Below the pieces are notes generated by a model. That model was not told the DNA's origin, searched no databases, and saw only the letters and a list, made by a program, of their open reading frames with translations. Below are positions 1 to 47,819 of a stretch of 64,000 nucleotides of DNA, one piece after another. The position numbers and the translations under genes were made by a program. Within the stretch, counting starts at the first letter, position 1; each line of letters opens with the position of its first letter. Source of the DNA: Blasia pusilla (taxonomy: Eukaryota); NCBI GenBank assembly GCA_050084515.1, contig CM114271.1, positions 36,580,001 to 36,644,000 on the forward strand, given 5' to 3'.

Positions 1-2330
1 GTCTCTTCCAAGAGTTTGTTGAATAAAGCTGGATCATATACCTTTGTACACACCATTCTAAAAATTCCAGATAATCTAATAACCACCATTCTCACATAGT
101 CCTTCAGAAGACCACGAATGCAATAAGGAAGGACTTGCTGAATGAAGACATGCTAATCATGTGATTTCATATTGCCCAATTTTTTATTAACCACATGCTT
201 GGAGAGTTCTCCACAATATCCAGATGGCACCTTCAAGTTTTGAATCCTCGAAAGGAAAGTGTTCAAGTCATGGGGAGAAAGAAAATAATCGGAAACTGGT
301 TTAAGCAAAACTTGGGGTTTACTAGGATGGGATTGCAACCACAAATGGGATCGAATCCCACAGGCCTCCAAATCTCTCCTTACTTTCATAGTATCTTCAC
401 TCCAAATAAGGTCTTGACTAGATTCTCAACGATATTCTTCTCAACGTGCATTACATCTAACATATGACGTATAAGCAAATTCTGATTGTATCGTCAAGGA
501 AGCATGGACATCTCACAACTTGAACATAGTAGCTAATATCCACAATCAAATCAAACAAAAGCTATCCTCCTCTATAGCCACTATTTCATAACATAAAGAA
601 TAGATAATATAGAGAGGAAGCAGGATACTGGCCAGTAAGGAAACGAATATAGTATACTCAGCCTTTTCACCCCAGTTCTCTTGTAGGGATCAGTAGGGCT
701 GTCTTCTCGACCCCCACTCTCATCATATGTATGTTTTTCATTTGCCCATCCAATAATCTCTCCGAAAAGTAGTCTAGGCACGCGTGGTCTAAGTTCTGCA
801 CTCCCGTTGAAATGAGATCCATACCTACGGGTCCTCCATGGATGGCTCAATGGGAGATATCGACGATGACAACCGTATATGGGCTTGCCAAAAGACTTTG
901 AAAAATCAGAATCCACTCGAGGCCCGCATATAGGACATCCTAGTTTTCCACCGTGGCTCTGCCCAACTACAGTTCTGTATGCCGGGTCATCATTTATGGT
1001 CCATAGTAAGGTAGCCCTGAACATGAAGTTCCAACTTACGCCTACCTTCTGAACGTCATGAAATTGAACCCCTTTCCACATTTCTTGGAACTCTTCCACT
1101 GGAGGAAGCAAGTATGTGTCTATGTTTTTCCCATTTACACTCTCCTTTCCTGGTATGATCCAAGAGAGCATCACAAAGAATTTTTTTGGCTGGAGCCAGT
1201 AAGGCAAGTTATAATTAACAAGAAGCACGGGCCATGTTGACCACAAACTCGACTTGTCTGAAAATGGATCCACTCCGTCCAAAGCTAGTCCAAACCTGAA
1301 ATTCCTCTTCTCCTCGGCAAAGTCTGGATATAAGTTGTCCATGTGGCGCCATGCCTTGCAATCAGCTGTATGCCTTACTAAGCCATCCTTGCTCTGATTC
1401 AAGGGGGCCCAGGTTAACAATTCAGACAACGTCCTGCATCTAAACATACGTCTCATCCGAGGTATGATAGGAAAATGCCTTAATACCTTACATGGTACCA
1501 ACGTTCTACCCACTTTCCGGAACCTTGGTTTCCCACATAATGGACAGATCTCAGCTTCATCCAAATCACCCCAGAGTAAAACACATCCAGCCAAACACGC
1601 ATGGATACTGTTGTAACCTAAGCCTAGTTTACCAATGAGTTTTTTTGCTACATAATAACTCGGTGGCGCCATGTTCCCTGTTGGTAGGACCAACTTACAA
1701 AGGAGTTTCAAAAATTCGTCAATAGCTACATTTGGGACGCCATGGGTGGTTTGAATGTTGAATAGTAACATGAAAAAAGCTAAAACATATGTTTTTGCTG
1801 TAGGGAACAAGGGTTTAGGGTAGAGGAGCTTGCAAGCTTCAGCAAGCTCCTCATATTCATCTCCATGATTGAATAGTGGTTCTTTGTTTGATATTCCCGG
1901 TTCAGGTAATTCATCAGATGGGAGAGATGTCTCTTCAGTCTCATCCTCATGTATATGGTCGTATTTCTGGAAAATATCATTGAGCATTTTATGAACGTCA
2001 ATGTGCTCGTCTATATTTGCCATGGAAGATCTCTCCCTTCCATCCACATGGAAGGTGGGGGCTGACTACATTGTCTTATCCTCTTTGGCTTTTTTTTTCA
2101 GCAAGATCATGCATAAGCCACTTCTCATTTGAAGAGTCCCATCCATCCCTAGATTTTGGCACTCGACAAAGCGCCGAGCGTCCATTTTTATCTCAAATGT
2201 GCTTCCAGCTTGCCGATGGATAACGTAGACCCACCCTTACAATCATTGCACGGACACCGCAATCTTTTACAGCCCAGTACACTAGCTCGTGTGCTTTCCT
2301 ATTGCCACAACTTGGAATCGTGTGCCTTTA
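1..2330 (-). pseudogene. CACTA transposase (TnpD/Tnp2, Transposase_21 family), spliced, disrupted
   Basis: ORF 581-2047 has IHACxxGCVL, CPLCGKPRF, KVLRHFPIIPR, RNFRFGLALDGVDPF and WSTWPV...NLP. A GT-AG intron 628-482 leads into NLLIRHMLDVMHVEKN. There is a 1-bp frameshift near 397 and TAG at 153-155 (KSHD*HVF). Upstream CPCNDC motif near 2240-2260. Confidence 0.9.
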
Positions 2331-6339: not shown

Positions 6340-9300
6340 AACAACATTTGCCCTAGGACCATCTCACTTTTATTTCCAACACAATATGGAAGATTATTCG
6401 ACTCATTTTGCTCGCGGGTATATTAAAAAATTGTAACTCGGGATGTAATTGAAAATCCTAACTAGGGGGGCTAACTCGCAGATCTGAACCATTGAAGTTG
6501 TGGACGGATTTACCGCAAACGGATTTGGGTCCCTCCAATTGCACCATCTTCTAAAATGATATGACATACATTTGTTAAATTTTCAGCAATAGATCTTAAC
6601 CCACTTCCCTTTCATTGTTAATTTCTCTTCGATTTGAAGCAAGCGACTTTGATTTGATGGAATAAGGCCTTCACTTGTGCCAGGTTTCACCACCATCCAA
6701 CAGTAGTACCGGTCATGGAATGATAACATTTTCATGTTATCACAATGACTCGAAATAATCTCACTCTTGACCCCTCTTTTTCTACCCTCCACACTCCACA
6801 TGCGGCCCAAAAATCATGAATTTTTTTTGAGGATGGCACCCCTAAAGTAAAAATATAGGGAAAAAGAAAAAACTTCAAATGACCACTCACACACATAACT
6901 ACAAATCGTAAACCCTAAAACCGGTCATCCATTTTTGGTTGGAGCATGGAGAGCTAATTCGCAGATCTGAACCGTTGACCATGGGGACAGATGTAAGGCC
7001 TCCTTATGTGCTAGGTTTCATCACCATCCAATGGTGAAAGCAAGAGATAACTCCATCATAACATGAAAATGCCACAAGGACTTCAAAGAATCCTACTCAA
7101 CGCCCTCTTACTCCTTCTTGGCTTGTCATTTTGTACCTTGCATCCTCCATATGGGGCCAAAAATCATGAATTTTTTTTGAAGATGGCACCCTTAACCCAA
7201 GAACAGCTGAAAAAAAGAAAAAAACATCAAATGACCACTCACACACCGAACTAAAAATTGTAAACCCTAAAACTGGTCTTCCATTTTAGGTTTGAGCATG
7301 GAGAGCTAACTTGTAGATCTGAACCATTGAAGTTGTGGAAGACATTAATGGACAGGCTCTGAAAAATATTCATTCACATCCAATGGTGGAAAACAAAGTT
7401 ACCACCATGTTACAATGAAAATGAGACAACGCCTAAGGAAAAGATTACTCAAAGTCCTCGTCCTCCTTCTTGATCCATCATTTTCTCCTCTCTTCCTCAA
7501 CCTCCTCCTCCTTAAATCTTGAAACTTTTCCCTGGGAGGCAACCCATTTTGAGGAATAGAAGCCAAAATAAAAAATTACGAATGACCACTCACACATGGT
7601 ATTAAAAACCGTAAACCCTAAATAAGGTTTCTGATTTTTGGTATTAGCATGGCAGCTTCAATAGAAGATCTGAACCGTCAAAATTCTCGAGAAATCTAAT
7701 ATCAAGGCTAGGAAAAATATTCATTCCCATCCAATGGTGGAAAGAAAAGAAACCACTATGTTACCATGAAAATAATACAACGCCTTGGAATGAAACTATT
7801 CAAAGTCCTCGTCCTCCTTCTTCATCCATCATTTTCTCCCCTCCTCCTTAACCACGAGTCCTAAAATCTTGAAACTGTTCCCAGAGGAGCAACCCAACTC
7901 TAGGAACACAGATCAAAAGAAAAAATTACAAATGACCATTCACACATGGAATTAAAAATTGTAAACCCTTAAACTGATCTTTCATTTTTGGTTTGAGCAC
8001 GGAGAGCTAACTAGCAGATCTGAACCATTCAACATGTGGAGGGATTTAAGGCCTTGGTGTGTGCGAGGTTTCATCACCATCCAATGGTGGGAGAAAAAGT
8101 AAACTTCATGACTCCAATGAAAATAACATCAGGACTCGAACATAAAAACGCCAAAAAAAACGCCTTTTCATCTCCATATTCCTTATATTTCCGCTCCATC
8201 CAACGGTGGGAAGTCAAGATGCCAGAGTGCAAACATCAAAATTGAACTAACACTTGGATCATTATTCGTGTTTTGCCTTTCTTTGTCTTTCATCTCCATT
8301 TGCGTGGCCCTCCTCTTCATCATTGTTTCTAAAAATCATGAAACTTTGTCACAAGATGTACTTATGTGTTACTATACCAATAGAAAAAGAAAATCTCCAA
8401 ATGGACACCCAAGCAGGGAATACAAAATCATAAACCCTAACTACAATTTCCCATTTTTAAATTGAGCAGGGAGTAAGATGAGGAAAATCCACATGGTCCA
8501 AAAGTAAAAGGGCCTTCTCATGTCCATATTCCTTATTTTTCAGCTCCATCCAACGGTGGGAAGTCAAGATGCAAGAATATAAACATCAAAATTTAACTAG
8601 CTCTTGGGACATTATTAATGTTTTGCCTTTATTCCTCTTTCATATCCATTTTGTTGGCACCTCTCTTCATCACCAAGTCCATAAATCCTCAAACTTTGTC
8701 ACAAGATGTACTTATGGGAGGCTATACCAATGGAAAAATAAAATATTCAAATGGACCCCCGGCTTGGGAATTAAAAATCATAAACCTTAAATAAGTTTTC
8801 CCATTTTTAAATTGCGCATAAAGTAGGATATGGAAAATACACACTGCCCAAAAGTAAAAGGGTCTTCTCATAACTATAGTCCTTATGTTTCAACTCCATC
8901 CAACGGTGGGAAGTCAAGATACTAGAGTGCAAACATCAACATTCAACTAACTCTTGGAACATTACTTGTGTTTTGCCTTTCTTTGTCTTACATTTCCATT
9001 TGCTGGGCCCTCCTCTTCATCACCATGCCTATAAATCATGAAACATTTTCACAAGATGTACTTATGTGCTACTATACCAATGAAAAAATAAAATCTTGAA
9101 ATGGACATCCAAAGAGGGAAAAAAACATCATAAATCCTAAACACGATTTCCCAATTTTAAATTGAGCATGGATAGGATATAGAAAATCCACACCGTACAA
9201 AAGTAAAAGGGCATTCTCATATCCATAGTCCTTATATTTCAGCTACATCCAACGGTGGAAAGTCAAGATGCTAGAGTGCAAACATCAAAATTAAAATAAC

Positions 9301-10346
9301 ACTTGGATCATTATTTGTGTTTTAACTTTCTTTGTCTTACATCTCCATTTGCTTGGCCCTCCTTTTGATCACCATGTCTATAAATCATGAAAAATTGTCA
9401 CAAGATGAAATTATGTGTTATTATGTCAATGGAAAAATAAAATCCTGAAATTAACGCCCGGCCACGGAATAAAAAATAAAAAAACCCTTACCGTGGTTTC
9501 GTAATTATAAATTCAGCATGGAGTAGGAAATGGAAAATCCACATCTTCCAAAAGTAAAAGGGCCTTCTCATCTCCATAGTCCTTATGTTTCAGCTCCATT
9601 CAATGGTGGGAAGTCAAGATGCTAGATTGCAAACATCAAAATTCAACTAACTCTTGGAAGATTACTTGTGTTTTGCCTTTATTCCTCTTGCATATCCATT
9701 TTGTTGGCCCTCCTCTTCATCACCAAGTCTCACCAAGTATGCCAAAAATCAATATACATTTCCTTGAGGGGCATCCCAACATCTAGAGCAAAGGGGAAAA
9801 AAGAAAAAACTCCAAATGACCACTCATACATGGATTTAAAAATCATAAATCCCAAAGGAGGTGTTTCATTTTTGGTAGGATAATGGGGAGCTAAATAGCA
9901 TATCAGAACTGTTCAAGTAGTGGAAATAATTAAGAGAAAAGTCAGTGCCACGTTTCATCACCATATTATGGTTCGATGAAAAGATAGCTACATGTTAATA
10001 TGACATACTACTCCCAACATTCGTACTCAAAGGCCTCCTCCCATTCTCTCCCCCCTCCCCTCACCAAGGGTTCTAAAAATCAAATTTTTTTTCCATAGGG
10101 GCACCCCAACACCAGGAAATAAGGGGGAAAGAAAAAACTCCGAATGACCACTCACATATGGATTTAAAAATTGTAAACGCCAAAGGAGGTGTTTCATTTT
10201 GGTAGGAGCATGGATGTTAAATAGAAGATCCAAACCGTTCAAGAAGTGCAAAAAATTAACCACGATTCTAATGCCAAGTTTGATCTCCATCTAATGGTTA
10301 GATGAAAAAATATCGCCATGTTAACATGAAAATGACACAACGGCTT
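6340..10346. repeat. Degenerate ~350-bp tandem array (about 11 units, two subtypes) inside the CACTA element
   Basis: Anchor AAATG(ACCACTCACAC/GACAC) at about 6877, 7228, 7581, 7930, 8399, 8750, 9099, 9814 and 10143. Subtype 1 carries AGATCTGAACC; subtype 2 (about 8150-9720) carries CCATCCAACGGTGGGAAGTCAAGATG. Boundaries are approximate. Confidence 0.85.
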
Positions 10347-10714
10347 TGTCATGACCGTACGGATTATGTCGTAGAGTATAGTGTGCTAGTAGAGGCCATA
10401 CCTTATGTAGGGCCGTAGTGTCCAGGTAGAGATGCGGTTTCATATATAAGATTGGGGGTTACTCAATTGAGGGTGACTTTTCCAGTAGGGTCTGCTCTTA
10501 GGTTGGAGGATATAGTGTGGAGTGCACTCAAATAACAATTAGTTCTTTGAGTTGAGCCTGTTGCGTTGAGAGTTAGCCTTGGTAGTGAGTAGAGCTCTTG
10601 GCTATGGTGGTTCCCGCAAGCTTCGACCTGGATTCTCCCATCGTGGAGTGGGTTTGGCTTGATTGTATGTGATTCTATACATGTTTTATGACATTAGATC
10701 TTTCACGGATTTCA
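10347..10714 (+). repeat. Terminal repeat A1 (368 bp) of copy 1, with TATA-like box at 10511
   Basis: Matches 19587-19954 with about 21 differences, mostly transitions. Also matches 48879-49246 and 57251-57616. Confidence 0.92.
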
Positions 10715-10726
10715 CTCAAAGAACTA
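10714..10726 (+). promoter_or_regulatory. Putative self-priming primer-binding site
   Basis: ACTCAAAGAACTA is the exact reverse complement of TAGTTCTTTGAGT at 10540-10552, about 30 nt downstream of TATAGT (10511). There is no TGG-starting tRNA PBS next to the repeat end. Confidence 0.7.
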
Positions 10727-13700
10727 GAGTAGATTGATGGTAGCTTCGATCGTGGATCAGTAGGATTTGGTTAGGATTGATTGTGTATCCAGCCGTGGAT
10801 GTTCGTGGCTTGTGGCCTATTTTGGAGATGGAAATCTGGTGCGTGGTTGTTTGGGAAAGAAGCGCCTTGCTGAGAGCTTTCCAATGCGCTTTAGATCGCC
10901 GGATTTCTTCAAGGGAGTTGGAAGTTATCAAGGATTGAAGATTCTGGTTCGTGTTCGACGGTTTGCTGATGTGGAGAACTTGGAGTGCGGAAGCTCTGTT
11001 GAAGTTCATCCAGATCGGGTGAGAGGTTCCTGTTGCTACCTGTATTGTGATCTCATGTGAAGCTATCTGCTTGAGTGTGTGGAGCGTTGCAGATTTATGT
11101 GTGCATGAATATGGGCGGAAGCGCTATCGGATTTGCGATTCTGGAGGTGTATGGACAACAAGTTTGTCTGATTTTTAGCTCGGAGTACAGATTCGGTTAT
11201 AGCTGATTTTTTGTGGAGAGATAGCTATGGTGGCCAATTGAATTTTGGTTGAAACAGATTCAATTTTGGTCAAGGATTTGTGGAGTAATTGCTGATCAAA
11301 ATTTTGCACACTAGCTCAAGGTCTGGCTATGATGGACAGCAGATCGGAGGGGCTGGTTGGTTGGAGGCTTCGAGGCAACTCGTGGTAGCTCAAGGCGCGT
11401 GGGCAAGTGGGCGTGAGAGGCGGAGTAAGGAGCAAGCAAGCAAGTTTGCTTGCTTGGGCATGAGGCAATTTTTGCAGGACTTGTGAGTTGAGTGTTACAT
11501 AATTGGTCACCCATCTTTGGGCTATTCTGCCTGGACGACGATTAACTGATGAGTTCTTAACTATGCTAGTGTACACACTGATGTACCTCATTTGGTGCTG
11601 TTTGGAGATGTGTTAGGCGCTTTATGCATCTCGGGTTTTTGGTTGATGGACCTCTAGCGCATAGTACGGTGTAGCCTCTCCATGCAGGTGATATTTTCAG
11701 GTGCTACGAGTGCGACTAGCACGTCATCGACCAGTGGCGGAGTAGCTATTGCGTTAGAATTGTGTGGTGGGTTCTATGGATTCAGGGGGCGCCATGTTTG
11801 GTGGATTGTGTTACCTTGATTTCCATTTACGATTGGAGGGTTGTCGTTGGACTTCTTGTGTTTGGATCCCCTCCATCGTTGCTTCTTGCTTGCGCGCCCA
11901 TTGTTAGGGTTGACGCTGATTTCCAGAGTAGTTTTACTCCTGTGTGCTACCGGTAGTGAGGCTAGAGTGATGACCAGTAGACCATGGGAGGCTTCTTGTG
12001 GTGATGACAGGTTAGGTTGCCTACACCCATAGCTAGTAGAGCTAGAATAGTACAGCGACATCGACGTCACTTGGTTACTTAGTGGTGGTAATTTGGTGGT
12101 GGTGCGGCATCGGCGTTGGTCATCACGGAGTTGTCTGGTGGTCTGGTTGGGGACCATGGTGTGGACAATGGTGGTTTTACATGGAGTGGATTGAGGTATC
12201 GGCTACCTTTTCCACTTCCGACGGTTGATGAAGAGGAGGACGAGGATGTTCCAAACACCGAGTCTTCTACGTTGTTATCGAGTGTTGCAACTCCATTGAT
12301 TTGGGACATGGACGGGATATATGGGGCCATGAAGGGCCCACGACGATACTCGGGTGTAGTGGGCACCATTGAGTTGGAGGACTTCATGCAGGAGTTTGAT
12401 ACGTGGTGTGATATGCAGATGTTGGGGAACGCCACGTTGTTTACACCCTTCTTGGCTTGGAAGGGGTTGTTTCAGCACTTGGAGGGACCACCCATGGATG
12501 ATTACCATGAGTTTAGGAAGGACCATGTTGCTGAGATTGAGGCGTGGAGACAATATTGGTCTCCAGGCTATGTGTCTATCATCCATGGTGGTATTGGTAG
12601 TAGTGATCCTACTATGCCAGCCAACCCGACGTTGAGTGGTACGAGTACGAGCCGGAGTGGGGGTACCAGTGGAGGTACCCATGGAGGTACCAGTGGGGGT
12701 ACTAGTGGAAGTACTAGTGCCCCACCATTGTTCATCCCGGTTGCAGAGTTCTTCAAGAGGTTGAAGAAGAACTATCAGGGATTGAAGATAGAGAAGTTGA
12801 GGAGTCTTCAGGAATTTGAGCAAAAGATTGGTGAGAGTCTTCGTGAGGCATACACTCGTATGCGACGCTTGATTTCAGTTACCCAAGGTGTGATTGAGGC
12901 TAAGGCAATCCAGTTTTGATATGGGATCTTGGACAGAGAGTTGCGCCGCAGGGTACGTGATGCTACTCTTATGAGTGATGATTCACCCACATTGACCCAT
13001 GTGTTTGCTCTATCTGAGAAGATTGAGCTTAACATGGTGGAGGAGAGAATGGCGACATCCGCATTCAGTAGGGATACAACTACTACTTCTCGTGTTCAGC
13101 AGTCCACCTCAAAGTCTCGTAGTAGTGGTGGTGGTAGTAGTAGTGGGAGTCATGGGGGGTACACACGACCTCAGTCACGTCCTAGAGGGACACTTGCCCA
13201 AAGACCATTGCCTTCATTTGCTGCCCCGCAGCAAGGACAGTCATGTTGGACATGTGGAGGTGATCATGTTAAGAGGTTTTGTCCCCAAGAGGATGGGAGA
13301 CGGACTTTGGAGGATGGTCCTCAGTCGGCCCCAACTTAGTGTGATCATTGCGGGAGACCTGGTCATCCTCAAGAGTGTTGCTTTGATCTTCATCCAGAGT
13401 TGAGATCAGGCCGTGGCCGCGGTGGAGTAGCTCCGAGAGGCCGAGGTGGTAGAGATGATAGGGGTGGTAGAAATGGATCAGTGGTTGGAGAGCCTATGGT
13501 GGCTACCCCTACCACTACAACAAAGTCAACTATGGCTGCCAGGATTGAGCAGTTGGAGCAGAAGTTGGCTACTATGGTTGGTATCTAGCATAGAGCAGAT
13601 TCGGGAGCAGGGGCTTCCACCTCTTATGGAGGGAATGATCTCTCTTATATGGCGAGTGCAGCACAGGTTGAGGCATCAGCTGCAGTTACGAGAGGAGCCA

Positions 13701-14984
13701 CTCGAGCGTCAGAGCCACGTGGTGCTATTGTGGAGTTGGACCCGCAAAGGGGTGAGGCTGGGAGGCAGGCTAGGCTTCCCCAATCATTCTTGTTGTCTGA
13801 GGTGCTTAGGACTCCATCCATGGTTCCTAGGCAGCCTGTTGAGCCTACAATGGGGACTGAGGCATCTACATCGCGTGTAGTAGACACGAATGCAGCATCC
13901 AATGCAGTATTGCGGATGGAAACTTCAGTGTTGGGATCCCCATTATTTTCGGCCACGGAGCTGATGGCTTTAGGAGTTGACTTAGCTCATGTATTTCAGC
14001 TAGCAGCCACGTTGTGTGAACGTGGGGGTGTTACTGCTACACGTGCTGAGGTGGATGAGGGTGTTGCGGTGGAGTGACCCTCTATGTCAGGTGTAGCATT
14101 GAGTACTAGTGCTACTTAGCAGGCAGCAACGGCGAAGATGGATGCATTACCAGCCCGGCCAGCCATTGATCGTGAGAGGCTTACACCTGGTGTATGTATG
14201 TTGGACAACCGGAGTGGGATATTCCGATTGGTGAGTCCTACAGGACAGGTGTATAGACTAGATAGAGTCTAGTGCCCAACTTTTGATGTTGGGAAAGGCG
14301 GCATGTATTGGTTTGGGTATTCGGAGGTCAGAGCTTGAGCCTTGCCCATTCCAGATTCAAACATCACTTGGAGGAGCCAATGATAGGTCTCAATTCATGA
14401 CACGGGAGAAGTTGTCTGTACACTTGAGACCAGATCATGCAACTGATAGCTCACGGTTGGGAGTACCTACAGTGGTCACATCAGCCGAGTCGTATGATGT
14501 ACTAGTTGGAGGAGCAGTATTATACCTGATGGGTTTTCAGATGGACTACTGGACCGAGACAACGTCATATAGACCTGGTTGGCAGTCCGGGGATGGACGT
14601 ATGAGCGAGGTTCATGTGAGATTTATTTATGGGGCTCGACCAAGAGGGTCTACCCCAAAGGTGTTAGCATCTGTGGCTGGTTTTAGTGGAGTAGTCATTT
14701 GGCCAGGAGACTTTTTGGAGGGTAATCTTTTTGCTATGGATTCTCGTGTGCATGAGGAGGTCCCTAGTTTTGCAGTTGTGGCATCCTCATCGTTGGATGT
14801 GCCACTTTGGAGTTCAGGCGGTGCACTACGGCAGGAGGCTGATCGCCTAGTGCAGGAGGCTTGGTGTGAGGCTCTTATACCTCACGAGGAAGAAGAGATC
14901 CCACAATGGACTCCTACTTCTGGTCTAGTTGGGTTATCCCCTTTGGATAGTACACCCATTGTATGACAGTATCCGCCGGAGGGC

Positions 14985-15910
14985 ATTTGTGTGTTAGATC
15001 TCTTTGGTGGGATTAGCACTGGTTTGCCTCCAGTGTTGCAGGCCGGTATTCTTGTGCGGAGATACGTGTATGTGGAGCGAGATGAGATGGCCTAGAGAGT
15101 CTCATCCCGACATATTGGTCAGTTGATGCGGAGATATCTTGAGATGTTGTCGCCATCAACTATTCGTGGGTACCAACGTGCTTTGTCGTCACACATTGCA
15201 TTGTTGGGGGCACAAGACCTTGAGAGGGTTGGTCGTGTGGATTTGGTGATTTCTGGATGGCCATGTCAGGGTCATACACGTGCTGGTCGTGGTGAGGGTT
15301 TACACGACCCTAGGTCTCGATTGTTTTGGGAGATGTTACGGGTGTTACGACATCTTCAGGTTCATCAAGCACGTGCTCCAGCTTACATTCTGGAGAATGT
15401 TCCATTGTTAGGTGACACTCGGACCCGGATGATGGCGAGTGTTTATGAGGTGCGGTCTTGGATTGGACCAGCGGTATTGTTGGATGTAGCGCGAGTTGGC
15501 TCGCGTGCACATTGTCCACGCTTGTGGTGGACAAACTTGTTGCCTACGGAGGTTCTATGTTGAGCATATGATGCAATACATCGGGATCCTTGCCTTACAG
15601 TGGATAATATCTTGGATACTGGGCGACTTTCTCAGGTGGTGAGGGTTATTGATTGGTCACCCATGGTAGTGGTGAACCATGTGGGCTAGTCTAGGATGGC
15701 ACTACCCATATTTGTGAGTTTTCCCTCGTCACATGCCTACAGGGAAGGTGGTCCCGAGCTTGTATGGGATTCTTATGTGTGACAATTGGTGGAACCTAAC
15801 ACTAATGAGAGAGAGCCTGCAATGGGATTTGCTACTCGTGTGACAGCGGTTGCTTCCATTTCTGAGGCTTCACGACGTCATGTGTTGGGTCAGGCCATGG
15901 ACCTGAATTT
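14985..15910 (+). pseudogene. DNMT3-like C5 cytosine methyltransferase domain in copy 1
   Basis: Motif I VLDLFGGIST, II YVERD, IV GWPCQG (15255-15272), V DPRSRLF, VI ILENV, VIII AHCPRLWWTNL, IX ExExAMGF, X VLGQAMD, in canonical I-X order. Confidence 0.9.
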
Positions 15911-18900
15911 TTTTACCTGGATTTTGAATCTTGGGATGGCCGAGCACCGTTGACTTCAGACTATGTCTATGGGTCTTCCACCCCTTGTGATGAGCTCGAT
16001 GGCTACCAGGATGGTAGAGACATCGGATGGGGGCGAGGAGAATAGTATTTTGCATCCTTGGAGTAAATGGGATGTAATCGCTGGGCATGTGGAGTTGGTT
16101 GCTCATGCTGGTGGAGGTGTTATTTGCTCAAATGATGGTGTAGCTAAGGGTGTACCATCTTGTGAGGGGGTTGCCTAGCAGCCAATGGCGTCGTCCTCTC
16201 CCTCTAGTGTGCCAGTGGAGGAGACTTGGGAGCCATTACTTGGGCCCAAGCTTAGGGGAGGTGAGAAATGACGCTTGACACAATTCCTACGTGCTTATAG
16301 GAGTTGTTTTGCCTTTAGCATGAAGGAGTTTGGTGCTTTGGTTGGACCCGGTATACGGATTGATTTGGCCAATCTTCCGTCGTCCCTACCGATATAGTGA
16401 TATGGAGAGGGACCTGATTCAGAGTAGGACGTTGGACCTTTTGGAGGGTGGATTAGTGGAGTTTTCGCATGGAGAGTATGCATCAGCCACTGTCATGCTT
16501 GCTAAAAAGGATGTGCATGGCAACTACACGGATAGGCGGATGTGTGGAGATTACCGTCTTATCAATCGGCAGCCCAAGGCCGATAGGTATGCTATGCCTA
16601 CACCTGAGGAGATCTTTGATGTGGTGGGACATGCAAAGATTTTCAGTACTTTGGATCTTCGGGTAGGATACCATCAGTTTCCGATTCGAGAGAGTGACAA
16701 GGCCAAGACAACATTTTGGGGTGCCAACTCTCATGGCAAGGATTGTTTGTACCAGTGGAAATTCTTACCCTTTGGGTTAAAGAATGCACCTGCTGAGTTT
16801 CAGAGAGTGATGGATAGGATCCTAGCAGGGTTGGATTTTGTTCGGTGTTACATTGATGATATCTTGGTGTTCAGTAATACGGTGGAGGAGCATCAGATAC
16901 ATTTGTAGATTGTGTTTGAGCGGTTGAAAGCTCATGGTCTACGTTTGCATCCCGGAAAGTGTAAGTTCTTCCATGAGGATGTTGAGTACTTGGGTCATGT
17001 GATCTATCCAGGTGGTTTGGGAGTTCAGCAAGCAAAGGTGGAGGCTATTGCACTTATTCCTCGTCCGGTAGATATGAGTAGAGTTCGGCCATTCATGGGA
17101 TTGGCGAACTGCTATCGGAGGTATGTGAAGGGATTTAGTGCTAGGGCAAAGCCTTTGAACTTATTTCTGAAATCAGATCACGAATGGAACTGGGGAGATG
17201 ATCAAGAGAGAGCTTTTTTGGAGCTCAAGGCCCAGTTGGTGACGGCGCCTATCTTGAGGAGACCTATCAGAGGGCACCCATTTCAGTTACACACTGATTG
17301 GAGTAGGTTGTGACTTGGAGCGGTGTTGACACAACATGATGATGAGCACATGGAGTTTGTGGTGGCCTATGCAAGTCGTACGAATAATGCAGGGGAGTCG
17401 CGCTATAGTTCATATGAGGGAGAGTGCTTGGCAGTTGTGTGGGCTGTGGCACACTTTAGGTGTTACTTGTTTGGCACACAATTTACCCTTGTTACTGATC
17501 ACCAGCCGCTCAAGTGGTTGATGGAGTCTGACAAGCTTACATGGAAGCTTGCATGGTGGGCTCTTATCTTACATGAGTATCACTTCCAGGTGGTACATAG
17601 ACCTAGAGTTTCCAACCTTGATGTTGATGGGTTGAGTAGGAACCCATGTACAAGCCATGAGGATGCAACTGGGGCTAGATGGCATGGCGAGGTTGATGAG
17701 GAGATGGTGTCAGTTTGGCATGCATCCGCCTTTTTATGTTGGTTAGGGGTGAACTCTAGTATGGAGGACCACATGACATCTTACTCTAGTCGGAGGATAG
17801 ATGGCCAACCTTCAGATCCTAAGGTTGGAGATGGTGGTACGGATTAGCATGATATTCATGATGATGCGTTGGTGTTGGAGTTCCTACGGACCAGTAGGGT
17901 GCCAGGCATAGTGAGTGCCAAGGAGCGAGATCGTGTTCTTCAACGTGCTAAGAGGTATCAATTGGAGAAACACATATTCTCCGTGTGTGGGAGGATGGTT
18001 GAGTACGAGTAGTGCCGCATTTGGCTCAGAGAGAGCCCATTGTGCGACATGCCCATGAGGAGTTGGGATATTTTGGGGTAAAGGATACGTATAGCTTACT
18101 CCTTGGTCAGTATTGGTGGCGTGGCATGCATACTCAGGTGCAGTAGTTGGTGTCACGTTGTATGGTTTGTGACCGTATGAGGGCATCATTCAATGTCCCT
18201 ACACCACTGTTACATCCCTTGCCTATTATGGGGTTGGATTACTGTTGGAGTGTGGACTTTGTGGGACCATTACCGTTGACTGTACGACATCATCAATATG
18301 TGTTGGTGATGGTGGAGGACTTCTCCAAGTGGATTGAGTTGGTGGCATTACCTGACAAGGCAAGTGACGGAACGGCGTATGCGTTTCTTGATAGAGTCCT
18401 TAGTCATTTTGGTGCACCAGCTGAAGTGCTGACCAACCAGGGTACAGAGTTTCAGGGTGAGTTTCAGGTCTTGTGTGACAAGGCGTTGATTGATCATCCG
18501 ACCACGTCTCAAGATCATCCAGAGGTGGATGATTTGGCGGAGCGTGTGGTTCAGACGGTGAAGAGGGCATTGGGCAAGTATGGCCTACAGAAGGGGCATC
18601 TTGGAGACTGGGATATTCAATTGCCATGGTTAGCCATGGGATATAGGTTCAGTCGCCAAGCATCCTTGGCTTCCTTCTCACCTTATTTTTTGTTATACGG
18701 CCGAGATCCAGACTTGCCAGCAGCAATTTGTGGAGAGTCTAGTGAGGTGGTGAACCTTGATGACCCTGAGATGTGGATGAGAGTGTGTTCTCAACGGGCA
18801 CAGCTCTTCCGGAGAGTTATGCCAATAGCCTTTGAGAATCTTGCCATTGCTCAACACAGGGATACGTTGCAGTATGCAACCATTCGGGGTGGAGATTATC

Positions 18901-19156
18901 GACCATCGATCCGTAGGTTCCATGTGGGGGGTTGGACTATGCTTATTTGCATTAGATTGCTCCGACAATGTTGGATGTGACGGCAAGCCGCACTATTTTA
19001 CGAGTGTGCGAGGTGTTAGCTTCTGGAGTTCTCATGTTGGAGAGTCGTGATGGAGTTATTTGGAAGGACCATGTGCGTAATTATGCCGCATGTCATCTTC
19101 CAAATGTGGATGATACTGTTGACCCAAGCTTAGCCATGATACGTGCTAGCTTGAGG

Positions 19157-19291
19157 TGCATGTTATGTGGGTCTGCTGGTAACGCAACCACTATGTTGAT
19201 GTGTGATCGGTGTTCTAGGGGTTGGCACATGATGTGTTTGACTGCACGTATGGATGTTGTTCCTACTGGAAGGTGGGTTTTTCCTCGATGT
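19157..19291 (+). other. C-terminal PHD finger after the integrase (copy 1)
   Basis: CMLC...CDRC...WHMMC...W-x-(C>F)-PRC. Copy 2 (56834-56968) has the intact C4HC3 pattern. Confidence 0.88.
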
Positions 19292-19460
19292 ACTTAGGAG
19301 AGGTAGATGACTTGATCTTTGCATGATATGGATTACAGATGTGCGACTAACGATGGGGCAACCTAGCACCCGACCTTCTGATTCGTGCACCCACGAAGGT
19401 GTATAGCATGTAGTAGATGTATAGGGCTACCTGGGAGTTAGAGGGACCTAACCGCCAGTT

Positions 19461-20060
19461 AGGGGGGCGAGTTGTGGTACTTTTTTCTTTGTGGATGCTC
19501 TCGTCTATGTTATGTATGTATGTATGTATGTGAGTATGGTATGTCAACGATGTATGTTGTATGACGATGTGGATTTGCACGACATCTGTCATGACCATAC
19601 GGATTATGTCGTAGAGTATAGTGTGCTAGTAGAGGCCATACCTTATGTAGGGCCGTAGTGTCTAGGTAGAGATGCGGTTTTATACATAGGGTTGGGGGTT
19701 ACTCAGTTGAGGATGACTTTTCTAGTAGGGCCCGCTCTTAGGTTGGAGGATATAGTGTGGAGTGCACTCAAAGAACAGTTAGTTCTTTGCGTTGAGCCTG
19801 TTGCGTTGGGAGTTAGCCTTGGTAGTGAGTAGAGCTCTTGGCTATGGTGGTTCCCGCAAGCTTCAACCTGGATTCTCCCATCGTGGAGTGGGTTTGGCTC
19901 GATTGTATGTGATTCTATACGTGTTTTATGACTCTAGGTCTTTCACGGATTTCAGTTGTGGTACACTTGTGTTTGTGGATGCTCTCATCTATGTTATGTA
20001 TGTATGTGAGTATGGTATGTGAGCGATGTATGTTGTATGACGATGTGGATTTGCACGGCA
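19461..20060 (+). repeat. PPT plus 3' repeat block of copy 1: B1 (19473-19584), A2 (19587-19954), B2 (19957-20060)
   Basis: AGGGGGGCGA-GT-TGTGGTAC...GCACGACA-TC-TGTCATGACC...GATTTCA-GT-TGTGGTAC...GCACGGCA. Confidence 0.92.
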
Positions 20061-20109
20061 GCTTTGAATAATCCCTACCAACATTAGAGCATTAAATCAT
20101 TTAAACATA

Positions 20110-20326: not shown

Positions 20327-21356
20327 GATCCTCCAAAATCCAAAATCCAAACTCCATCTATAACCTAAACCCATGATCGAAAGTGGATGCAACTGTGGAG
20401 TCGGAGCATTGAACGATGCTCGAACTCGAACTCGATCACACATCATACACTTGGCAACAAACTGCTGAACGTTAGTCTGCATGCCTGTCCACCAATACTA
20501 TATCTGGAGCAAGGTGTAAGTCCGCTTCACTCCAAAATGACCCAACTCCTTGTAGGCATGACGCACCAAATGTGCTCTCTTCGAAGGACGAGGCACCACA
20601 CACACTCTACCATCCTCACAAACTCGCAATACATGTGTCCCCTCCCACCGGAACTGTCTGGCTTGTTGTAGGATCCCGCTCTCTAGCACCCACTGTACTC
20701 GTGACGATGCCTATACGCAGGTACTCCAAGACCACTCCATTGTCGTGAATGTCTCAGCCACCTGTCGTCTCCTCATCGACCTCTGGATCTAAGGACTCTC
20801 CATCAGACCTTGCCATCAAAGTCTCAGCAATCTGGCTCTCCATAGCCAAAAAGCCCAAATAGGCTGAGTGCCATCATGGCACCAACTCCTCATCACTCTC
20901 ACCATGCCAACAAGCTCCAGTCGTATCTCGTTGACTCGAGCATGGATTACAGCTCAAACCATCTGCATCTTGGTTGAGCGTCGTAGGTCTATGCACCACC
21001 TAGAAGTCATACTCTTGCAACAAAGAGCCCACCTTGCAAGCTTCCTTGTAAGCTTGTGGGACTCCATCAACCACTTAAGTGGCTGATGATCAGTAATGAT
21101 GGTAAAGGGATTGCCGAATAAATAACACCTAAAATATATGACAACCCACACCGCAACCAAGCACTCACCCTCATACAAGCTATGCTTTGCCTCTAGAGCA
21201 TTGTTCGAGTGACTAGCGTAAGCCATCATGAACTCTCTACCATCATCATCATGCTGGGTGAGCACGGCTCCAAGCCCCAACATGCTCCAATCGGTATGCA
21301 ACTGGAAAGGACGCCCCCTGATCAAGCTCCTCAATAAGGGCATGGACGTCAATATG

Positions 21357-22583
21357 TGTGATACCCACAATTTTGTACTTTTGAAGAATATATCTTTTTA
21401 TTCAACGAAGACTCTTGTACATTATGAATATGATTATGATTATTTATTATTATGAGGAGGAATGAGTAAGATTAAAGTGAATCACAAAGCTCCTAGGACA
21501 AGGCAAAGAGATGGAAGATCAAGGATTTGCCTTAGAGGAGAGGGAAATGCTATAACGAAGTCTAAAGAACCAACGCAAAGCTTGGAAAAGACAACGAAGC
21601 ACTGTTAAGAACTTTTTTATGAAGTGCTTTGCTCTTGAACGAAGCATGAAGAGGAAGAGAAAGAAGTACTTCACTCTCGTACGAAGCGCGAAGCACGAAG
21701 CACCTGAAACAAGAACGAAGCAGAGAGTGCTTCATCCTCAAGAAGTCTAGCGAAGCGAAGCTAAGAATGACAGTGATTTCGAGTGACACACCATTAGAAC
21801 AATTAGACTAGGAAAGGGCGCGACCCTTTGTATCAGATAGATAGTTAGGATTGTTTTGTTCTGCGGATTCACAAGGATCGTAGGAAAAGCTAAGAGAACC
21901 ATATATCTAGGTAGTTAGAAATGGTGAAGAGACACTAGCTTCATCAAGAACGCTTCGAATCTTTGGATCACTCCTACTCCAGCGAGTATTTAAGAAGCAA
22001 GACAGAAGCCATAATCATCATTCTCTTACAAAGTCCTTATGCTGTAGGAATGGTCCAAGCAAGGGAGTAGTACCCTCTGGAGCTTGTATACACTTTGAAG
22101 CTTTCTCATTCTTGATGGAGTAGTAAAGCAATCATTCATTCATTCTGATGTGCGATGCTTATGTCTGAGTATTCCTTTTGGGTCTGCAGAGTGAAGAGTG
22201 AATCAGGCAAACCTTTCTCATCAATGAAATAATCAACATGAGCTGTAGGAAATCTGTTTGACAGAGAGTAGCCTGACGAGACGGATTGAATTCAAAAAGT
22301 AGGAAAAGCCAGTTTTCATGTTGAGGTCTCTGTGAGGTTTCTTGATATTGAGAGGAAATCTACCTGAGCATGCTATCAATTCCACTAGAGAGAATCAAGA
22401 AAAGATCCTTTGGTACTAAGAAAGATCAGCAGATATTGATAAGACATTGAATATAACTCATACACATTTTAACACAACTATTACAACAAAATTGTAATTT
22501 TGAATTCTCTTTCATCAAACAATGATCCTCTTGGGGATCGACCTTATTAAACGACTGTAAAATAGAAACTCTTGTACATTACA
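21357..22583. mobile_element. Solo LTR (1227 bp), unassigned family, 5-bp TSD ATATG
   Basis: TGTGAT...ATTACA termini. ATATG at 21352-21356 and 22584-22588. Removal restores the LKDILTSMP reading in the host element. Confidence 0.88.
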
Positions 22584-23849
22584 ATATGTCCTTGAGCAAC
22601 TAAAATTCTCTCTCATGCTCATCCTCCCAGTGCCACTCGTGATCCACCTTGGTCAGCAAGGTTAGCGGTTTCGCAATCAAATTGAAACCCTTGACGTACC
22701 GTCGATAGAAGTTTGCCAATCCCATGAATGCACGAACTTGACTCACATCTGTAGGGCGTGGAATATGTGAAATAGCCTCTACCTTTGTCTGCTACACACC
22801 AACGCACCTTGGGTATATCCTATGATCCAAGTTCTCAATCTGGTCGTAGAAGAACTTGCACTTGCTTGGATGTAGCTTCAGCCCATGTAACTGAAATCCT
22901 CAAAACACCTCCTCTAGATGTCGCTCATGCTCCTCAATCGTGGCGCTAAAGACTACAATGTCATCAATATAACACCTAGCAAAATCTAGACTTGCCAAGA
23001 TCCTATCCATGACCCTTTGAAACTCAGCTGGGGCATTCTTTAACCCGAATGGTAAGAATTGCCACTAGTACAAACAATCCTTCCCGAAGGATTGATGCCC
23101 CAAAATGTTGTCTTGTGCCTGTCCTCCAATCTGATAAGCAGCTAATGATATTCGGTTCAAAGATCTAACAAATTGAAGTCCTTTACATGCCCAATAGCAT
23201 CAAAGATCTCCTCAGGAGTGGGCATGGCATACCTATCAGACTTAATAGGTCAATAATCTCCACACATCCGCCTATCCGTCCAGTTGCCATGCACATCCTT
23301 CTTGGGGGGCATGACAGTGGCAGATGCAAACTCTCCATGTGACATCTCCACTAGTCGTGCTCCAACCAAGTCCTGGATCCTACTCTGAATCAGAACCCTC
23401 TTCATGTCACTATACCTATAGAATCATCGAAAGATCGGGGTGTCACTCGACAACTCAATGCGGATGCTTGGATCCTTCAGCGTACCCAAATTCTGCATGC
23501 TAAATGCAAAAAAACTCCTATAACTCCTAAGGAACTAGTGTATTTTGCGCTGCTCTCCTCTTGTCAACTTAGGGCCCATATCTGGCTCCCAAGTCTCCAT
23601 CGTGACTACGATAGGACTCTTCAGTGTAGGTGTAGGTGGTTACTATGGTGCAACCCCATCTCGGACAACATAACTCTTATCTCCACTTGCAGTACCCGAA
23701 ACCACGCTCGATGTTGTGGCTACCATGTCCTGGCGTACCTGCAAAACATCCCAAGAAGTCCAAGGGTGCACCAACGCAACAACTATGATCTGACGCATCC
23801 TCAAATGACGCTGATTAGCTACGCCTAAGCTAAAAATCCATGTCAAGTA

Positions 23850-27565: not shown

Positions 27566-30500
27566 TGTCGCGACCCTCATGACCAAACAAGTGCCAAGCG
27601 GAACATCGGAACATTAGCGGGCTCACGCTAAGATGGTTTGCGCGTTGGAGTTGTCTCAAAGAGGAGACAAGAGACGAGACGCGAGCGAGAAGTCGCGTTT
27701 CAGATGTGATGGTCACAACTCAGAAACCTGGACCAAACGCGGAATGAGACTTGAAAGAAGTCGAGTCTAGGAAGTGGGTTGCCAAAGGAAAGATCCGGAT
27801 TTGGAACGCCACTTGCGTTTGAGAGTTTCTGACTGTATTTCTAGCCATAACTTTTAGCGCCGAGATGCGTTTGGAGCAAATAAGGGTGCGTTGGAAATCT
27901 TATAGAGAGCTGGTCAAAACGCACTAAAGATTGCTGCAAACGCATAAGCACCGGCCGAGATACAACCCGAAAACGACTGTAAGTGGAGTCGGGTTGAGGG
28001 CCACAATGAAGGGCCCGAACCTCTTTTCCCAAAGGGGAGGGGTTATTGGAGAACCCCAGAAGTACTAGTAAGGGGGAAGGTCTCCGAGAGTGCTTGGAAC
28101 CCAAACCCCACTTTGGGCGCCGCAGGGCGGCTCAAGGGCATGGAACGGAACGCGAGTTTGGGCGTTGGGTTGGAAAACCTGCACCAAGTCCATTGAGGCG
28201 ATTTTAGACATCCCTCTTGGATTTCACGCCGCGACTCAATTACTTGGGTCTCGGTTCGGAACTCACACGAGGAGCGTTGAACAGTTGGGATCGCTAGGCG
28301 TGCAAGTGTCGTTTCAGATCCCTAGACTAACCAGGAAGTCTGTTCCAAGTCTTGAAGGACTTGCCATGTGTTGGGAGCTAGGAACTAAGGAAGGTTGAGC
28401 TTGACGAGACGCCGAGTTTAGGACTCGGTGGGTTGGAACGCCGGTTGGCCAAACCCGACTAATGAGAGTGCGTGTTTGGGTGTAGATCGGCGATGAGTTC
28501 GTGACCTATTGAACGCACGCTTCCGAACACTAAAGATTGACGTTCAAGGAGAGTAGGGGCGCGACAAGTGGTATCAGAGCTTATCCTTGGTGAGCGAGAA
28601 CTTGGGGTCGTGGGATCAGCCGGACGCTTGGGAAATTTCAAGGTAGCGGCTAGACTCGGACGCTCGAGGAGGAGATCTAAGTGAGTTGGCTTGGAGATGG
28701 CGATCGAGGGAGAACAACCCAAGAAGCGCCGAATCAAGCGACGTGAACCGAGAGAGGAACCAATGCCGGACCGTGAAGTTATAGAGGAGTCGGAGACTCC
28801 GAAGAGCCGAACGCTGCCCGTGTGGGCGCCCCGATGGCGACTCCTTCCGCGGGACCAGTGGGCCCAAACTCAGGGGAAAGGACGGAGTCGAGCCAGACGT
28901 TGGACTTGTTGAAGGTGTTGGTGGAGCAGATGTCCCAGCAAAGCAAGCGGATTGCCGAGTTAGAGGCCACTCGAAACCCGAGTGCGGGCAAAAAGCTCTG
29001 CAAGACTAACCGCCACGCCATTTCTTGGAGTGGGCGCCATGAAAGTGAAGGATTTCCGGAACGAATCAATGCCGAGCGCGAAAAGGTGCTGAAAGCGGGA
29101 CAAGGTGACGGTGGCCGTTACTTTCCTGAAGGATCATGCTCTACAATGGTGGACCGCTCAACGAGAGGAATATCTGGGTGGTGAGTCACCTCTGAGTTGG
29201 GAGGAGTTCAAGGAGTTGATTGGGGATCGGTTCACCCGAGTACCAAGGGTTGCGTGACACGGTGGAATGCGCGTGCGGATGCGGCGAGTGGTTCCTTAAG
29301 CGCGTATGTGAGGGAGTTTAGTCTGGCCCGACTTCTAGTCCGAAGATGGATGAGCACGCCGAAGAAGGCTATCTTCATTAGTGGACTCAAGCCGAGCGCT
29401 GAGAAGGCCCTTTACCGAATGCCGACGTTGCCAGAGACGTGCGCGGACCTTCTGAAGCTAGCGGAGCGGATTGGGGACGATGAGGTCCAAACCCAGAAAC
29501 CCTTCGAGTCAAAAGTTTTTTCAAGAAGTCGAAAAATAAGGAGGAGGCGTTCAAAGAGGTGGAGTGGGGGCAAGACGAACTAGAGAGTCGTCGCCTCGGC
29601 GACAAACGAGTGGAACTTCATGCAAAGCCGAAGGAGTACAACACTCGAAGAGAGGGAACGGCAAGGTCGTATGCTACAAGCGTGGCGAATCGGGGCACTG
29701 TCGAAGGGTGTTCAAACCGAAGGTTAGTAATGGGAGTATGATTGCGTTTGCTGCTAAGCATCTGTTGGCGGGCGATATGGAGACGTCCCTTCAAGTCACC
29801 AAGAGGACGCACAATTTGGTGTACCTAAGATCCAAGATTGTTGATCGCGATGTGTTGTTGCTCGTGGATACAGTGCCGACTCCTTCCTAAGCCCGAGAAT
29901 CGTGAAGGAGCGGGGCCGTTCTACCTCTAAAGCGGACGAGCCCATTCGAGTGGGATTTGCAGAGGCAAGTCTCATCGGACTTTGATTTGGTCTTAGGTTT
30001 GACAAAGAGGGATGCGGGGTATTCGAGTTGAAGGAGAATTTCAATGTATGCGAAATGGACGGCATTGACGGAGTTTTGGGAATACATTCCTAGATGCGTA
30101 TGAGGTGGAGTTAAGACGCCGACCATTGAGGTTGAGCGTCTTGCTAAAAAAAGGCAAACGGTTCTAGGTGCGGTTGGTCCGTGAGGTTCAGCAAAGATGG
30201 AGTTGGTGAACTCGATCACAAGGAGGAGCATGACCGAGTTGGAGGATGGATTTCTCTGCTTGATGAGACAAGTGGAGGAGGCTACAAGCGGTATAATGAG
30301 AGATCGTGACGCCTCAAGGGAATCCAGAACCACTCAGGAAGTGGTCCAGAGTTTGAGGATGTCTTGACAAATGAGCTTCCGACTGAATTGCCTCCGCATA
30401 GAGCCGTAGATCATAAGATAGAGATCATACCCGGTTCCCAGCCGCCTTTAAAAGCACCATATAGGTTGAATCAGGGGAGGAACTTCTTGAGTTGAAAAGC

Positions 30501-46844: not shown

Positions 46845-47819
46845 GTGTGGGCTCGTATTCCCATGGCCCACACCGAGGGGCCTACCCTGCATGCAACGTA
46901 GACTTGGGCTTATGCAACCCACACTCACTTAAGCAATCCATTGCCCATTCTTGCCACCCGTTCTTTGGCCCGCACCAAGCCCACAAAGGCCCGCATCAAG
47001 CCCATCCGTGGCCCGCATCGAGCCCAAACAAGGCTCGCATGGATAGCCCGCCCTCTACGGGCCTACCATAGGCCCTACGCGGGCCAGTGCAGGCGTGGTA
47101 GGATCAATGAAGGCATCGCAAGGGCTCATAGCCTGCATACCCGTTCGTTCCTTGCCCGTACTTGTTCTCGCGTCTCGAGCTGCGCGGGCAAAGGAGATAC
47201 CAGAAAACCTGGATGAGGGACTTATTAGGAAAGTTTGTTTCTGTGTAACCTTGATAAATTGTCAATCTCTAACACAAAATTCCATAACTTCTATCCATGT
47301 TGGATGAAAATTTGACCATAATTTAGGATTTTCTTACTTCGTTGAAATTAAAGGTTTCAATGAAGAAAATGATTGGGCATTATCTTGATGTTTCCTACTT
47401 TGGCACCCATATATGAATTGATTTTTAAAATTTTGACATAATAAAATAAGAAAATATGAAAATTATTCAATTACCTTATTTGAGAATACACAACTAATTT
47501 AAGCATTTGAAAATGAATAAATAATATCTATTTTTTAATATTTTTAACTCCTAATCTATGAAAAAAATTGATGATAGGCTCTTAGAATATCAACACAATG
47601 GTAGGCCATTAGCGTTCAGGTTATCTATCAAATGATACCTCTAATATGGAAAGTAAAAAGAGATAAAAGGATGGTGGACAAGACTGCTCCCAAGTGTGAA
47701 GATGTGCTTCATACATAGTCTTGTTTTATCTTTTTCAACTAGTGATATAATTATCTCTGTTTCAAACTTACTAGTAGTAACCCATGGGATGCACGGGATA
47801 TTTCAAACTTACTAGTAGC

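Follow-up and report, generated by a model that had tools for sequence, protein, structure and literature searches.

The DNA analysed here, which we call the window, is a 64,000-nt stretch of contig CM114271.1 of Blasia pusilla (positions 36,580,001 to 36,644,000, assembly GCA_050084515.1). It carries two copies, about 92% alike, of one retroelement: E1 (10347-20060, 9.7 kb) and E2 (48879-57709). Two kinds of repeat, A and B, make up the ends of this element. Since B (about 112 bp) is present on both sides of A2 and absent before A1, the order of the parts is A1-internal-B1-A2-B2. We suggest, from the sequence and its predicted folds, that the 12 nt directly after A1 (CTCAAAGAACTA) form the primer-binding site (PBS) of the minus strand, and that the primer is probably the element's own RNA, folded back on this site as in the fission-yeast element Tf1. 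We favor self-priming because the site is complementary to a segment of the repeat itself, lies flush with the end of A1, is conserved among relatives, has undergone two compensatory changes with its partner, and pairs with that partner in RNA folds. The coordinates of all features are collected in Table 1.

The site and its partner are complementary across 13 nt without a mismatch: positions 10714-10726 (ACTCAAAGAACTA) are the reverse complement of positions 10540-10552 (TAGTTCTTTGAGT). This match, first proposed in a sequence-only reading of the window, was reproduced when we recomputed it. The first base of the complementary site is the last base of A1, and the remaining 12 nt are inside the internal region; just inside the internal region, after the 5' long terminal repeat (LTR), is the usual position of the PBS in LTR elements. 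Chance is an unlikely source of such a match, because a complement of at least 13 nt to the 23-nt zone occurred in only 2/20000 dinucleotide-preserving shuffles of the repeat, and none of 377 internal 23-nt windows had a complement longer than 10 nt. The second copy had been said to keep the pairing, and this is what we observed: the E2 site matches its partner exactly over 10 nt and forms 13 pairs in all, two of which are G.U pairs resulting from wobble-compatible transitions (C>T opposite G and A>G opposite T). The duplex energy is -13.9 kcal/mol in E2 versus -16.5 in E1. The partner segment, hereafter X', also lies where a transcript might begin. The TATA-like box that had been placed about 30 nt upstream is indeed there (TATAG from 10511, 30 nt before A10541), and because a box of this kind stands 29-31 nt upstream of the partner in every subfamily, we predict a transcription start site (TSS) at about 10541.

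To follow the pairing beyond the window, we searched metagenome contigs with an alignment of the RNase H-integrase region; 432 relatives were confirmed and 80 loci were taken, with 58-85% protein identity. Repeat A is directly followed by the PBS at 22 metagenome 5' junctions, which we aligned with E1 and E2 (alignment A3, 22 distinct rows). Three segments are kept across this alignment: the PBS core CTCAAAGAAC, X' (TTCTTTGAG), and X1, an upstream copy of the PBS sequence. The A repeats themselves are only about 70% alike, and the sequences after the PBS are unrelated between subfamilies. Over the 13 X':PBS pairs, 89.6% of 260 cells hold standard pairs, versus 32-47% when the partner is slid by one to three columns. 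Two of the 13 pairs have changed on both sides (U-A to C-G and G-C to A-U), in L039, L057 and L058. As to covariation across subfamilies, proposed earlier as a check on the pairing, we saw these two compensatory pair changes, in one lineage. X1 has remained unchanged in that lineage, which breaks two X1:X' pairs, and we counted no compensatory changes between X1 and X'.

A second PBS-like sequence just upstream of the putative TSS had also been noted, with a local hairpin, and this hairpin was confirmed. In E2, X1 (49057-49068) and positions 49074-49084 form 11 bp with an energy of -14.8 kcal/mol. In E1, the hairpin arm contains T10533, which is private to this copy and weakens the hairpin; family RNA reads have G at this position in 76/76 and 129/129 cases, and DNA reads likewise have G. 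When folding was started at 10540 or 10541, the X':PBS pairs had probabilities of 0.77-1.0. Moreover, RNAalifold, run on 18 sequences from the predicted TSS to the PBS, returned unprompted a terminal helix between the 5' end and the PBS, with three further pairs reaching into U5, as the closing stem of a multi-branched leader.

Self-priming in this element would proceed as follows. The RNA would begin at A10541 or close to it, some 30 nt past the TATA box, and its first 11 nt (AGUUCUUUGAG) would fold back on 10715-10725. The RNase H of the element would then cut after G10551, and the freed 3' OH would be extended from A10714 through U5 and R, to be followed by an ordinary strand transfer to the R of A2. 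X1 would be missing from such a 5' end and present in the read-through 3' copy, where it would lock X' in the hairpin; with the X1 hairpin formed only in the read-through 3' copy, it follows that only the 5'-terminal X' would be free to prime.

The junctions of the element carry further information on its ends. The four copies of A in the window (10347-10714, 19587-19954, 48879-49246 and 57251-57616) are 92-94% alike. E1 interrupts one monomer of a 350-bp satellite without disturbing its phase; this monomer reads CACAACG-GCTT before A1 and GCTT-TGAATAATCC after B2. Because the monomer resumes in phase, the inserted unit begins with the first bases of A (TGTCATG), finishes with the last bases of B (CACGGCA) and is flanked by a 4-bp target-site duplication (TSD). 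Twelve elements have both ends visible; their 4-bp duplication is exact in nine (E1, L014, L030, L071, L019, L039, L043, L061 and L066), agrees at 3/4 bases in two (L044 and L052) and at 2/4 bases in one (L080). The internal B/A junction, CACGACA-NN-TGTCATG, is a 7-bp inverted repeat round a variable 2-nt spacer. At the A2/B2 junction (...TTTCA-GT-TGTGG...), the base before the PBS is fused to the bases after the polypurine tract (PPT) in E1, E2 and most relatives. The junction reads CA-GT-TG, just as had been deduced from a PBS flush with the CA end and a GT contributed by the PPT side, and the end of A is therefore a true terminus of reverse transcription. Read in this way, the putative PBS and the PPT define one pair of ends (the start of B and the end of A), and integration uses the other (the start of A and the end of B).

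The A2/B2 junction is not entirely uniform. Four of about 12 elements (L001, L014, L022 and L041) have a B2 that begins with the base A (CA/ATTG) and a B1 that reads GTTG; in L007 and L016 the junction is aberrant, with a truncated A2 joined to B2 via CCGA, which resembles the PPT end. This variation suggests, at the level of sequence, that the junction is formed anew in each cycle rather than copied. The 3'-end arrangement B-A-B was found in at least 15 further distinct metagenome elements, and upstream of the PBS-bearing A there is unrelated flank, never B, in 17/17 distinct metagenome copies with that side visible. Self-comparison of 16 further loci with long upstream flanks gave no complete repeat structure in most of them. 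In about 19 distinct metagenome contigs (e.g., L019, L039, L043, L061 and L066), B1 runs straight into unrelated flank, where a 4-bp TSD agrees with the sequence flanking A1; this "A-int-B" form may be real, or may result from assembly collapse of B1 and B2 or from B1 x B2 recombination, which leaves the same TSD. As for the repeats themselves, B is 83-87% identical to the window B in most relatives (70-78% in a few copies), whose A is only about 70% identical. Judged by these identities, B is under stronger constraint than the promoter-bearing repeat A.

How an element could have two pairs of ends is a matter on which we can offer only a tentative account, and we hold it to be possible rather than probable. 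The cDNA, self-primed at one side and PPT-primed at the other, would extend from B to A, and the integrase would insert a circular permutation of it (TGTCATG...CACGACA, with the 4-bp TSD). A2/B2 would then represent the joined cDNA ends, made anew every cycle (CA-GT-TG, with 1-nt variants), and B/A would be an attachment (att) site internal to the LTR, opened by the DDE integrase in a way similar to the circle junctions of insertion sequences. We rejected random opening of a two-LTR circle as the source of A-int-B-A-B. It predicts equally many A-B-A-int-B insertions, and 0/19 were seen among the copies whose PBS-bearing A has a visible upstream side (17 distinct metagenome copies and the two window copies).

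Transcription of the family was followed in two stranded raw RNA runs with the same species label (X21 and X22), mapped on 10300-11200. The family is transcribed in sense. RNA depth in the two runs is 161 and 213 at the 5' part of A and falls steadily to 28 and 9.6 at its end. Values for the internal 5' region are 17-44 and 5-22, and reads cross from A1 into the PBS region at a depth equal to that of the internal 5' region. Most of the coverage of A is B1-A2 read-through, with the junction consensus ...GATTCGCACGACAG(C) in 127 and 147 reads. We infer that transcripts mostly terminate within A, so that A would behave as a U3-R-U5 unit (unique 3', repeated and unique 5' parts), and note that uneven divergence among expressed copies could also shape the depth profile. 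A few RNA reads (4 in X21, 8 in X22) join 10664 back to 10376, 289 nt upstream. This joint is in no contig of DNA run X1 (a run label, distinct from segment X1), and it could stem from template switching, from an artefact of library preparation or from an expressed copy in which A is partly duplicated in tandem.

Several of our observations weigh against self-priming as set out above. The TSS expected at about 10541 did not appear in the RNA reads, which have neither a start nor a clear step there: depth passes from 78 to 86 and from 132 to 136 across this position. The sole listed pile-up of molecule ends is at 10508 (22 molecules in X21, none listed in X22), which falls at the TATA box, 33 nt before the predicted start; the counting convention is unstated, and "begin" may here mean the low coordinate when the first mate is on the minus strand. 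When E2 was folded from the equivalent of 10508 with an intact X1, the X1:X' pairs had probabilities of 0.18-1.0 and the X':PBS pairs 0. With such a start, therefore, the local hairpin outcompetes the PBS pairing in the E2 fold, sequestering X'. The evolutionary evidence has weaknesses of its own. The wobble-keeping changes in E2 and L080 carry little weight, as transitions at 9/12 PBS positions keep the pair anyway. The three covarying rows represent one lineage and one or two events, all other rows having the same sequence, and covariation shuffles reach the observed number of cells in 11/500 cases, the score in 14/500 and the number of pairs in 371/500. Finally, the changes on the PBS side are transitions, which are wobble-compatible with an unchanged external primer too, and a host-encoded primer would equally give a PBS that is nearly invariant down to 58% protein identity.

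These last points lead to the alternative that a host RNA primes the element, in the form of an internal tRNA fragment, a half-tRNA or a small RNA (...GUUCUUUGAG) rather than a tRNA 3' end; X' would then be a mimic masking the PBS or X1 until priming. We consider this unlikely, though less so than the alternatives below. A PBS core nearly invariant over 22 distinct rows spanning 58-85% protein identity is the pattern of tRNA-primed elements, every change on the PBS side in L039, L057 and L080 is a transition that leaves a wobble pair with an unchanged primer, and half-tRNA primers are known in plant copia lineages (Neumann 2019, PMC6317226). An external primer, however, gives no reason why L039 and L057 should have changes in X' at just those two positions that pair with the altered PBS bases, and slow evolution would be expected even without host constraint for X1, X' and PBS, which constrain one another. 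Neither did an Rfam scan of 10300-10900 match any RNA family at E up to 1.

As for a conventional tRNA primer, the TGG that would complement a tRNA 3' end is absent from the 23 nt that follow A, and subfamilies do not share the first stretch in which TGG occurs. We tried this stretch (TGGTAGCTTCGATCG), 23 nt after A, as a tRNA PBS and rejected it as too far from the LTR, unconserved, and too short in its complement when compared with the T-arm plus acceptor stem. In the alignment of relatives, the 23 nt beyond A contained no other conserved site for a primer, and no tRNA genes were found in the 64-kb window or in the 50 loci scanned of the 80 from metagenomes. By comparison, TGGTATCAGAGC, which we take to be an initiator tRNA-Met site, stands 2 nt beyond the 5' LTR of a canonical LTR element elsewhere in the window.

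Quite improbable, in our view, is a purely structural role, in which the pairing closes the 5' leader for packaging, dimerisation or translation control and priming takes place elsewhere, for example at the B/A junction. The first bases of that junction do contain a palindrome (GTCATGAC), the RNAalifold helix does close a multi-branched leader, and priming need not be canonical in an element whose integration ends differ from its PBS/PPT ends. Against such a role, the A1/A2 homology stops exactly at the site, and at A2/B2 this same base is fused to the bases that directly follow the PPT, a hallmark of cDNA whose termini were set by this PBS and PPT; the lack of a conserved alternative within 23 nt after A also argues against priming elsewhere. 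Complementarity without any function, with X2 a by-product of the duplication either of X1 or of the hairpin region, we regard as very remote indeed. X1 and the PBS are identical over 12 bases, the CA in front of them counted in, as they would be after a duplication, but the shuffle statistics, the compensatory changes, and the conservation of three segments where the neighbouring sequence is about 70% alike or unalignable all speak against it. Self-priming thus remains the account that we favor.

Table 1. Features of E1 and E2 in the window (positions are those of the window)
Feature	Position	Strand	Remarks
5' target-site duplication GCTT (4 bp) of E1	10343-10346	+	repeated at 20061-20064
Repeat A1, 368 bp, TGTCATG...TTTCA	10347-10714	+	
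TATA-like box TATAG (TATAAAG in relatives)	10511-10515	+	first T 29-31 nt before the A of AGTTC, every subfamily
X1, upstream copy of the PBS sequence, CACTCAAAGAAC in the family	10525-10536	+	5' arm of local hairpin with X'
X', proposed self-primer, AGUUCUUUGAG plus U	10541-10552	+	pairing reaches T10540
Putative primer-binding site CTCAAAGAACTA	10715-10726	+	flush with CA end of A1; A10714 pairs too
Internal region, many stops and frameshifts	10727-19460	+	gag (zinc knuckle) to PHD finger
Retrotrans_gag			weak Pfam match in E1 ORF fragments
C5 cytosine DNA methylase (PF00145)	15096-15563	+	6.6e-10
Reverse transcriptase (RVT_1)	16324-17000	+	
RNase H (RT_RNaseH)	17200-17600	+	9.6e-29
rve integrase	18147-18980	+	2.1e-12
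PHD finger, C-terminal	about 19160-19297	+	4.2e-08
Polypurine tract AGGGGGGCGA	19461-19470	+	directly upstream of B1; CTAGGGGGGCGA conserved in relatives
Repeat B1, GTTGTGGTAC...GCACGACA	19471-19584	+	
2-nt spacer TC in junction CACGACA-NN-TGTCATG	19585-19586	+	AC, AT, GC, TC or GT in relatives
Repeat A2	19587-19954	+	
Repeat B2, end CACGGCA	19955-20060	+	followed by GCTT at 20061-20064
E2 repeat A1	48879-49246	+	X1 at 49057-49068, X' at 49073-49084
Putative E2 primer-binding site CTCAAAGAATTG	49247-49258	+	
E2 3' end	57143-57709	+	B1 57143-57248, spacer GT, A2 57251-57616, B2 57617-57709 (3' end truncated)

By its predicted domains, the element is a Ty3/gypsy-type retrotransposon carrying a DNA methyltransferase (DNMT), with gag, C5-DNMT, reverse transcriptase (RT), RNase H, rve integrase and PHD finger. 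Neither a chromodomain nor a tyrosine recombinase was found among the 10 open reading frames (ORFs) of E1 scanned with Pfam, and the PHD finger sits in the ORF after the integrase. Stops occur throughout both window copies. The closest named proteins are from the liverworts Marchantia polymorpha, Riccia sorocarpa and Calypogeia fissa, and Sphagnum and Closterium were also matched. The family is very abundant, with 22973 contigs aligned to 901 bases in the best DNA run. Air metagenome runs X10 and X12-X14 hold small shares (0.11-0.15) of the words of the element. Within the window there are also more distant relatives, 72-75% alike in pol: E3 (38181-44868, 72%) and the minus-strand pol fragments at 20341-23606, in neither of which we found A- or B-like repeats. 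At the 5' end of E2, a 258-aa open frame (48130-48906) passes from unrelated upstream sequence into A1.

Experimental proof of self-priming comes, to our knowledge, only from fission-yeast elements. The Tf1 primer is the first 11 nt of the RNA; if the TSS of E1 is at 10541, its primer would be the first 11 nt too, with an extension from A10714 that matches this scheme. Like Tf1/Tf2 of Schizosaccharomyces pombe, Tj1, sushi and Maggy, E1 has a putative PBS just after the 5' LTR that is complementary to its own R. It departs from the Tf1/sushi elements by its C5-DNMT, by a PHD finger where they have a chromodomain, by its 4-bp TSD and by the division of its repeats into A and B; in addition, the PBS sequence occurs a second time upstream, and this further copy forms a hairpin with the primer. 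Self-priming is described as demonstrated for Tf1/Tf2 and implicated in their relatives from fungi to vertebrates, the self-primer being cut from the mRNA by the RT/RNase H of the element (Persson 2016, PMC5341516; Guo 2015, PMC4600332). Whether a Tf2 RNA includes the self-primer depends on which TSS is used (Persson 2016, PMC5341516); the fold of E2 is similar in that a start upstream of X1 would sequester the primer. The sequence-only reading had proposed Tf1-like self-priming in place of a tRNA primer. The conserved flush site, the absence of TGG for 23 nt and the predicted helix lend support to the mechanism, and that the element works like Tf1 is plausible from our analysis; that it is Tf1-like is not borne out by its 4-bp TSD, its PHD finger in place of a chromodomain and its split repeats, and the predicted TSS was not seen.

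Among plants, self-priming has been predicted from sequence in 12% of LTR elements, mainly in Tcn1 chromoviruses of mosses and club-mosses (83% of Tcn1) and in the TAR lineage of Ty1/copia (Neumann et al. 2019, PMC6317226). E1 is like Tcn1 in its bryophyte hosts and its sequence-predicted self-priming. Tcn1 elements, however, are reported with a 5-bp TSD and a CHDI/II chromodomain in 100% of cases, a mean length of 6.4 kb and ordinary LTRs (PMC6317226), whereas E1 has a 4-bp TSD, a PHD finger and a DNMT, a length of 9.7 kb and the order A1-int-B1-A2-B2. The part of the element-level PBS tables of that study that we compared does not contain CTCAAAGAAC (PMC6317226).

The closest described architecture is that of KnitGypsy-Dnmt3 from Klebsormidium nitens, with repeats that are DIRS-like and domains that are Gypsy-like (de Mendoza et al. 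2018, PMC5890265), and "streptophytes (Gypsy-DNMT3)" are named as a known group in a 2026 preprint. Both elements have a Gypsy-type Pol with an inserted cytosine DNMT, that of E1 being placed at the level of Pfam family, and both have DIRS-like repeats. Indeed, E1 has the C5-DNMT in Pol and RVT_1, RT_RNaseH and rve downstream, and at least 15 further distinct metagenome elements share the DIRS-like order A1-int-B1-A2-B2 with E1 and E2. KnitGypsy-Dnmt3 is from Klebsormidium, whereas the named relatives of the element studied here are from Marchantia, Riccia, Calypogeia and Sphagnum, which suggests liverworts or other bryophytes as its hosts. For DNMT-bearing Gypsy elements, we found no PBS, primer, self-priming, TSD or junction anatomy in the literature covered, which included the text of de Mendoza 2018 and a minority of the element tables of Neumann 2019. 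Split direct repeats of the form A1-B1-A2-B2 otherwise mark tyrosine-recombinase elements (Szitenberg 2014, PMC4157794). PAT/Toc/Kangaroo, Ngaro and VIPER are described with the same repeat order, and their internal B1-A2 pair is placed after the coding region. What they encode is a tyrosine recombinase, whereas E1 encodes a DDE (rve) integrase and has a 4-bp TSD, and it also has a putative PBS beside the end of A and a PPT beside the start of B.

Other features of the window can be noted briefly. The satellite into one monomer of which E1 is inserted forms a tandem array at 6775-10346, with monomers of about 350 bp that are 63-86% alike. The canonical LTR retrotransposon (27566-34860) is young, with 1-kb LTRs 99% alike, a PPT (AAAAGAGAGGTGAG) and a 5-bp TSD (CTCAC); its LTRs have termini (TGTCGCGACC...GCGCGACA) similar to those with which A starts and B ends in the element studied here, and an LTR copy 71% related to it is located at 45979-46847. 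An inverted repeat of about 420 bp joins 39998-40420 and 45396-44976, and a 488-aa ORF lies on the minus strand near the start of the window (581-2047).

Self-priming itself is already predicted in plants; the unusual feature of the present element is its lineage, together with its permuted termini. If our reading is true, self-priming would extend to a separate lineage carrying a DNMT and a PHD finger and abundant in bryophyte genomes. A second copy of the PBS sequence would lock the primer in a hairpin, so that the choice of TSS would decide reverse transcription, an arrangement undescribed for Tf1. The mismatch between the PBS/PPT ends and the integration ends makes the "DIRS-like repeats" of an integrase-encoding element directly testable, and the existence of two end pairs, if true, would represent a replication route between those of LTR and DIRS elements.

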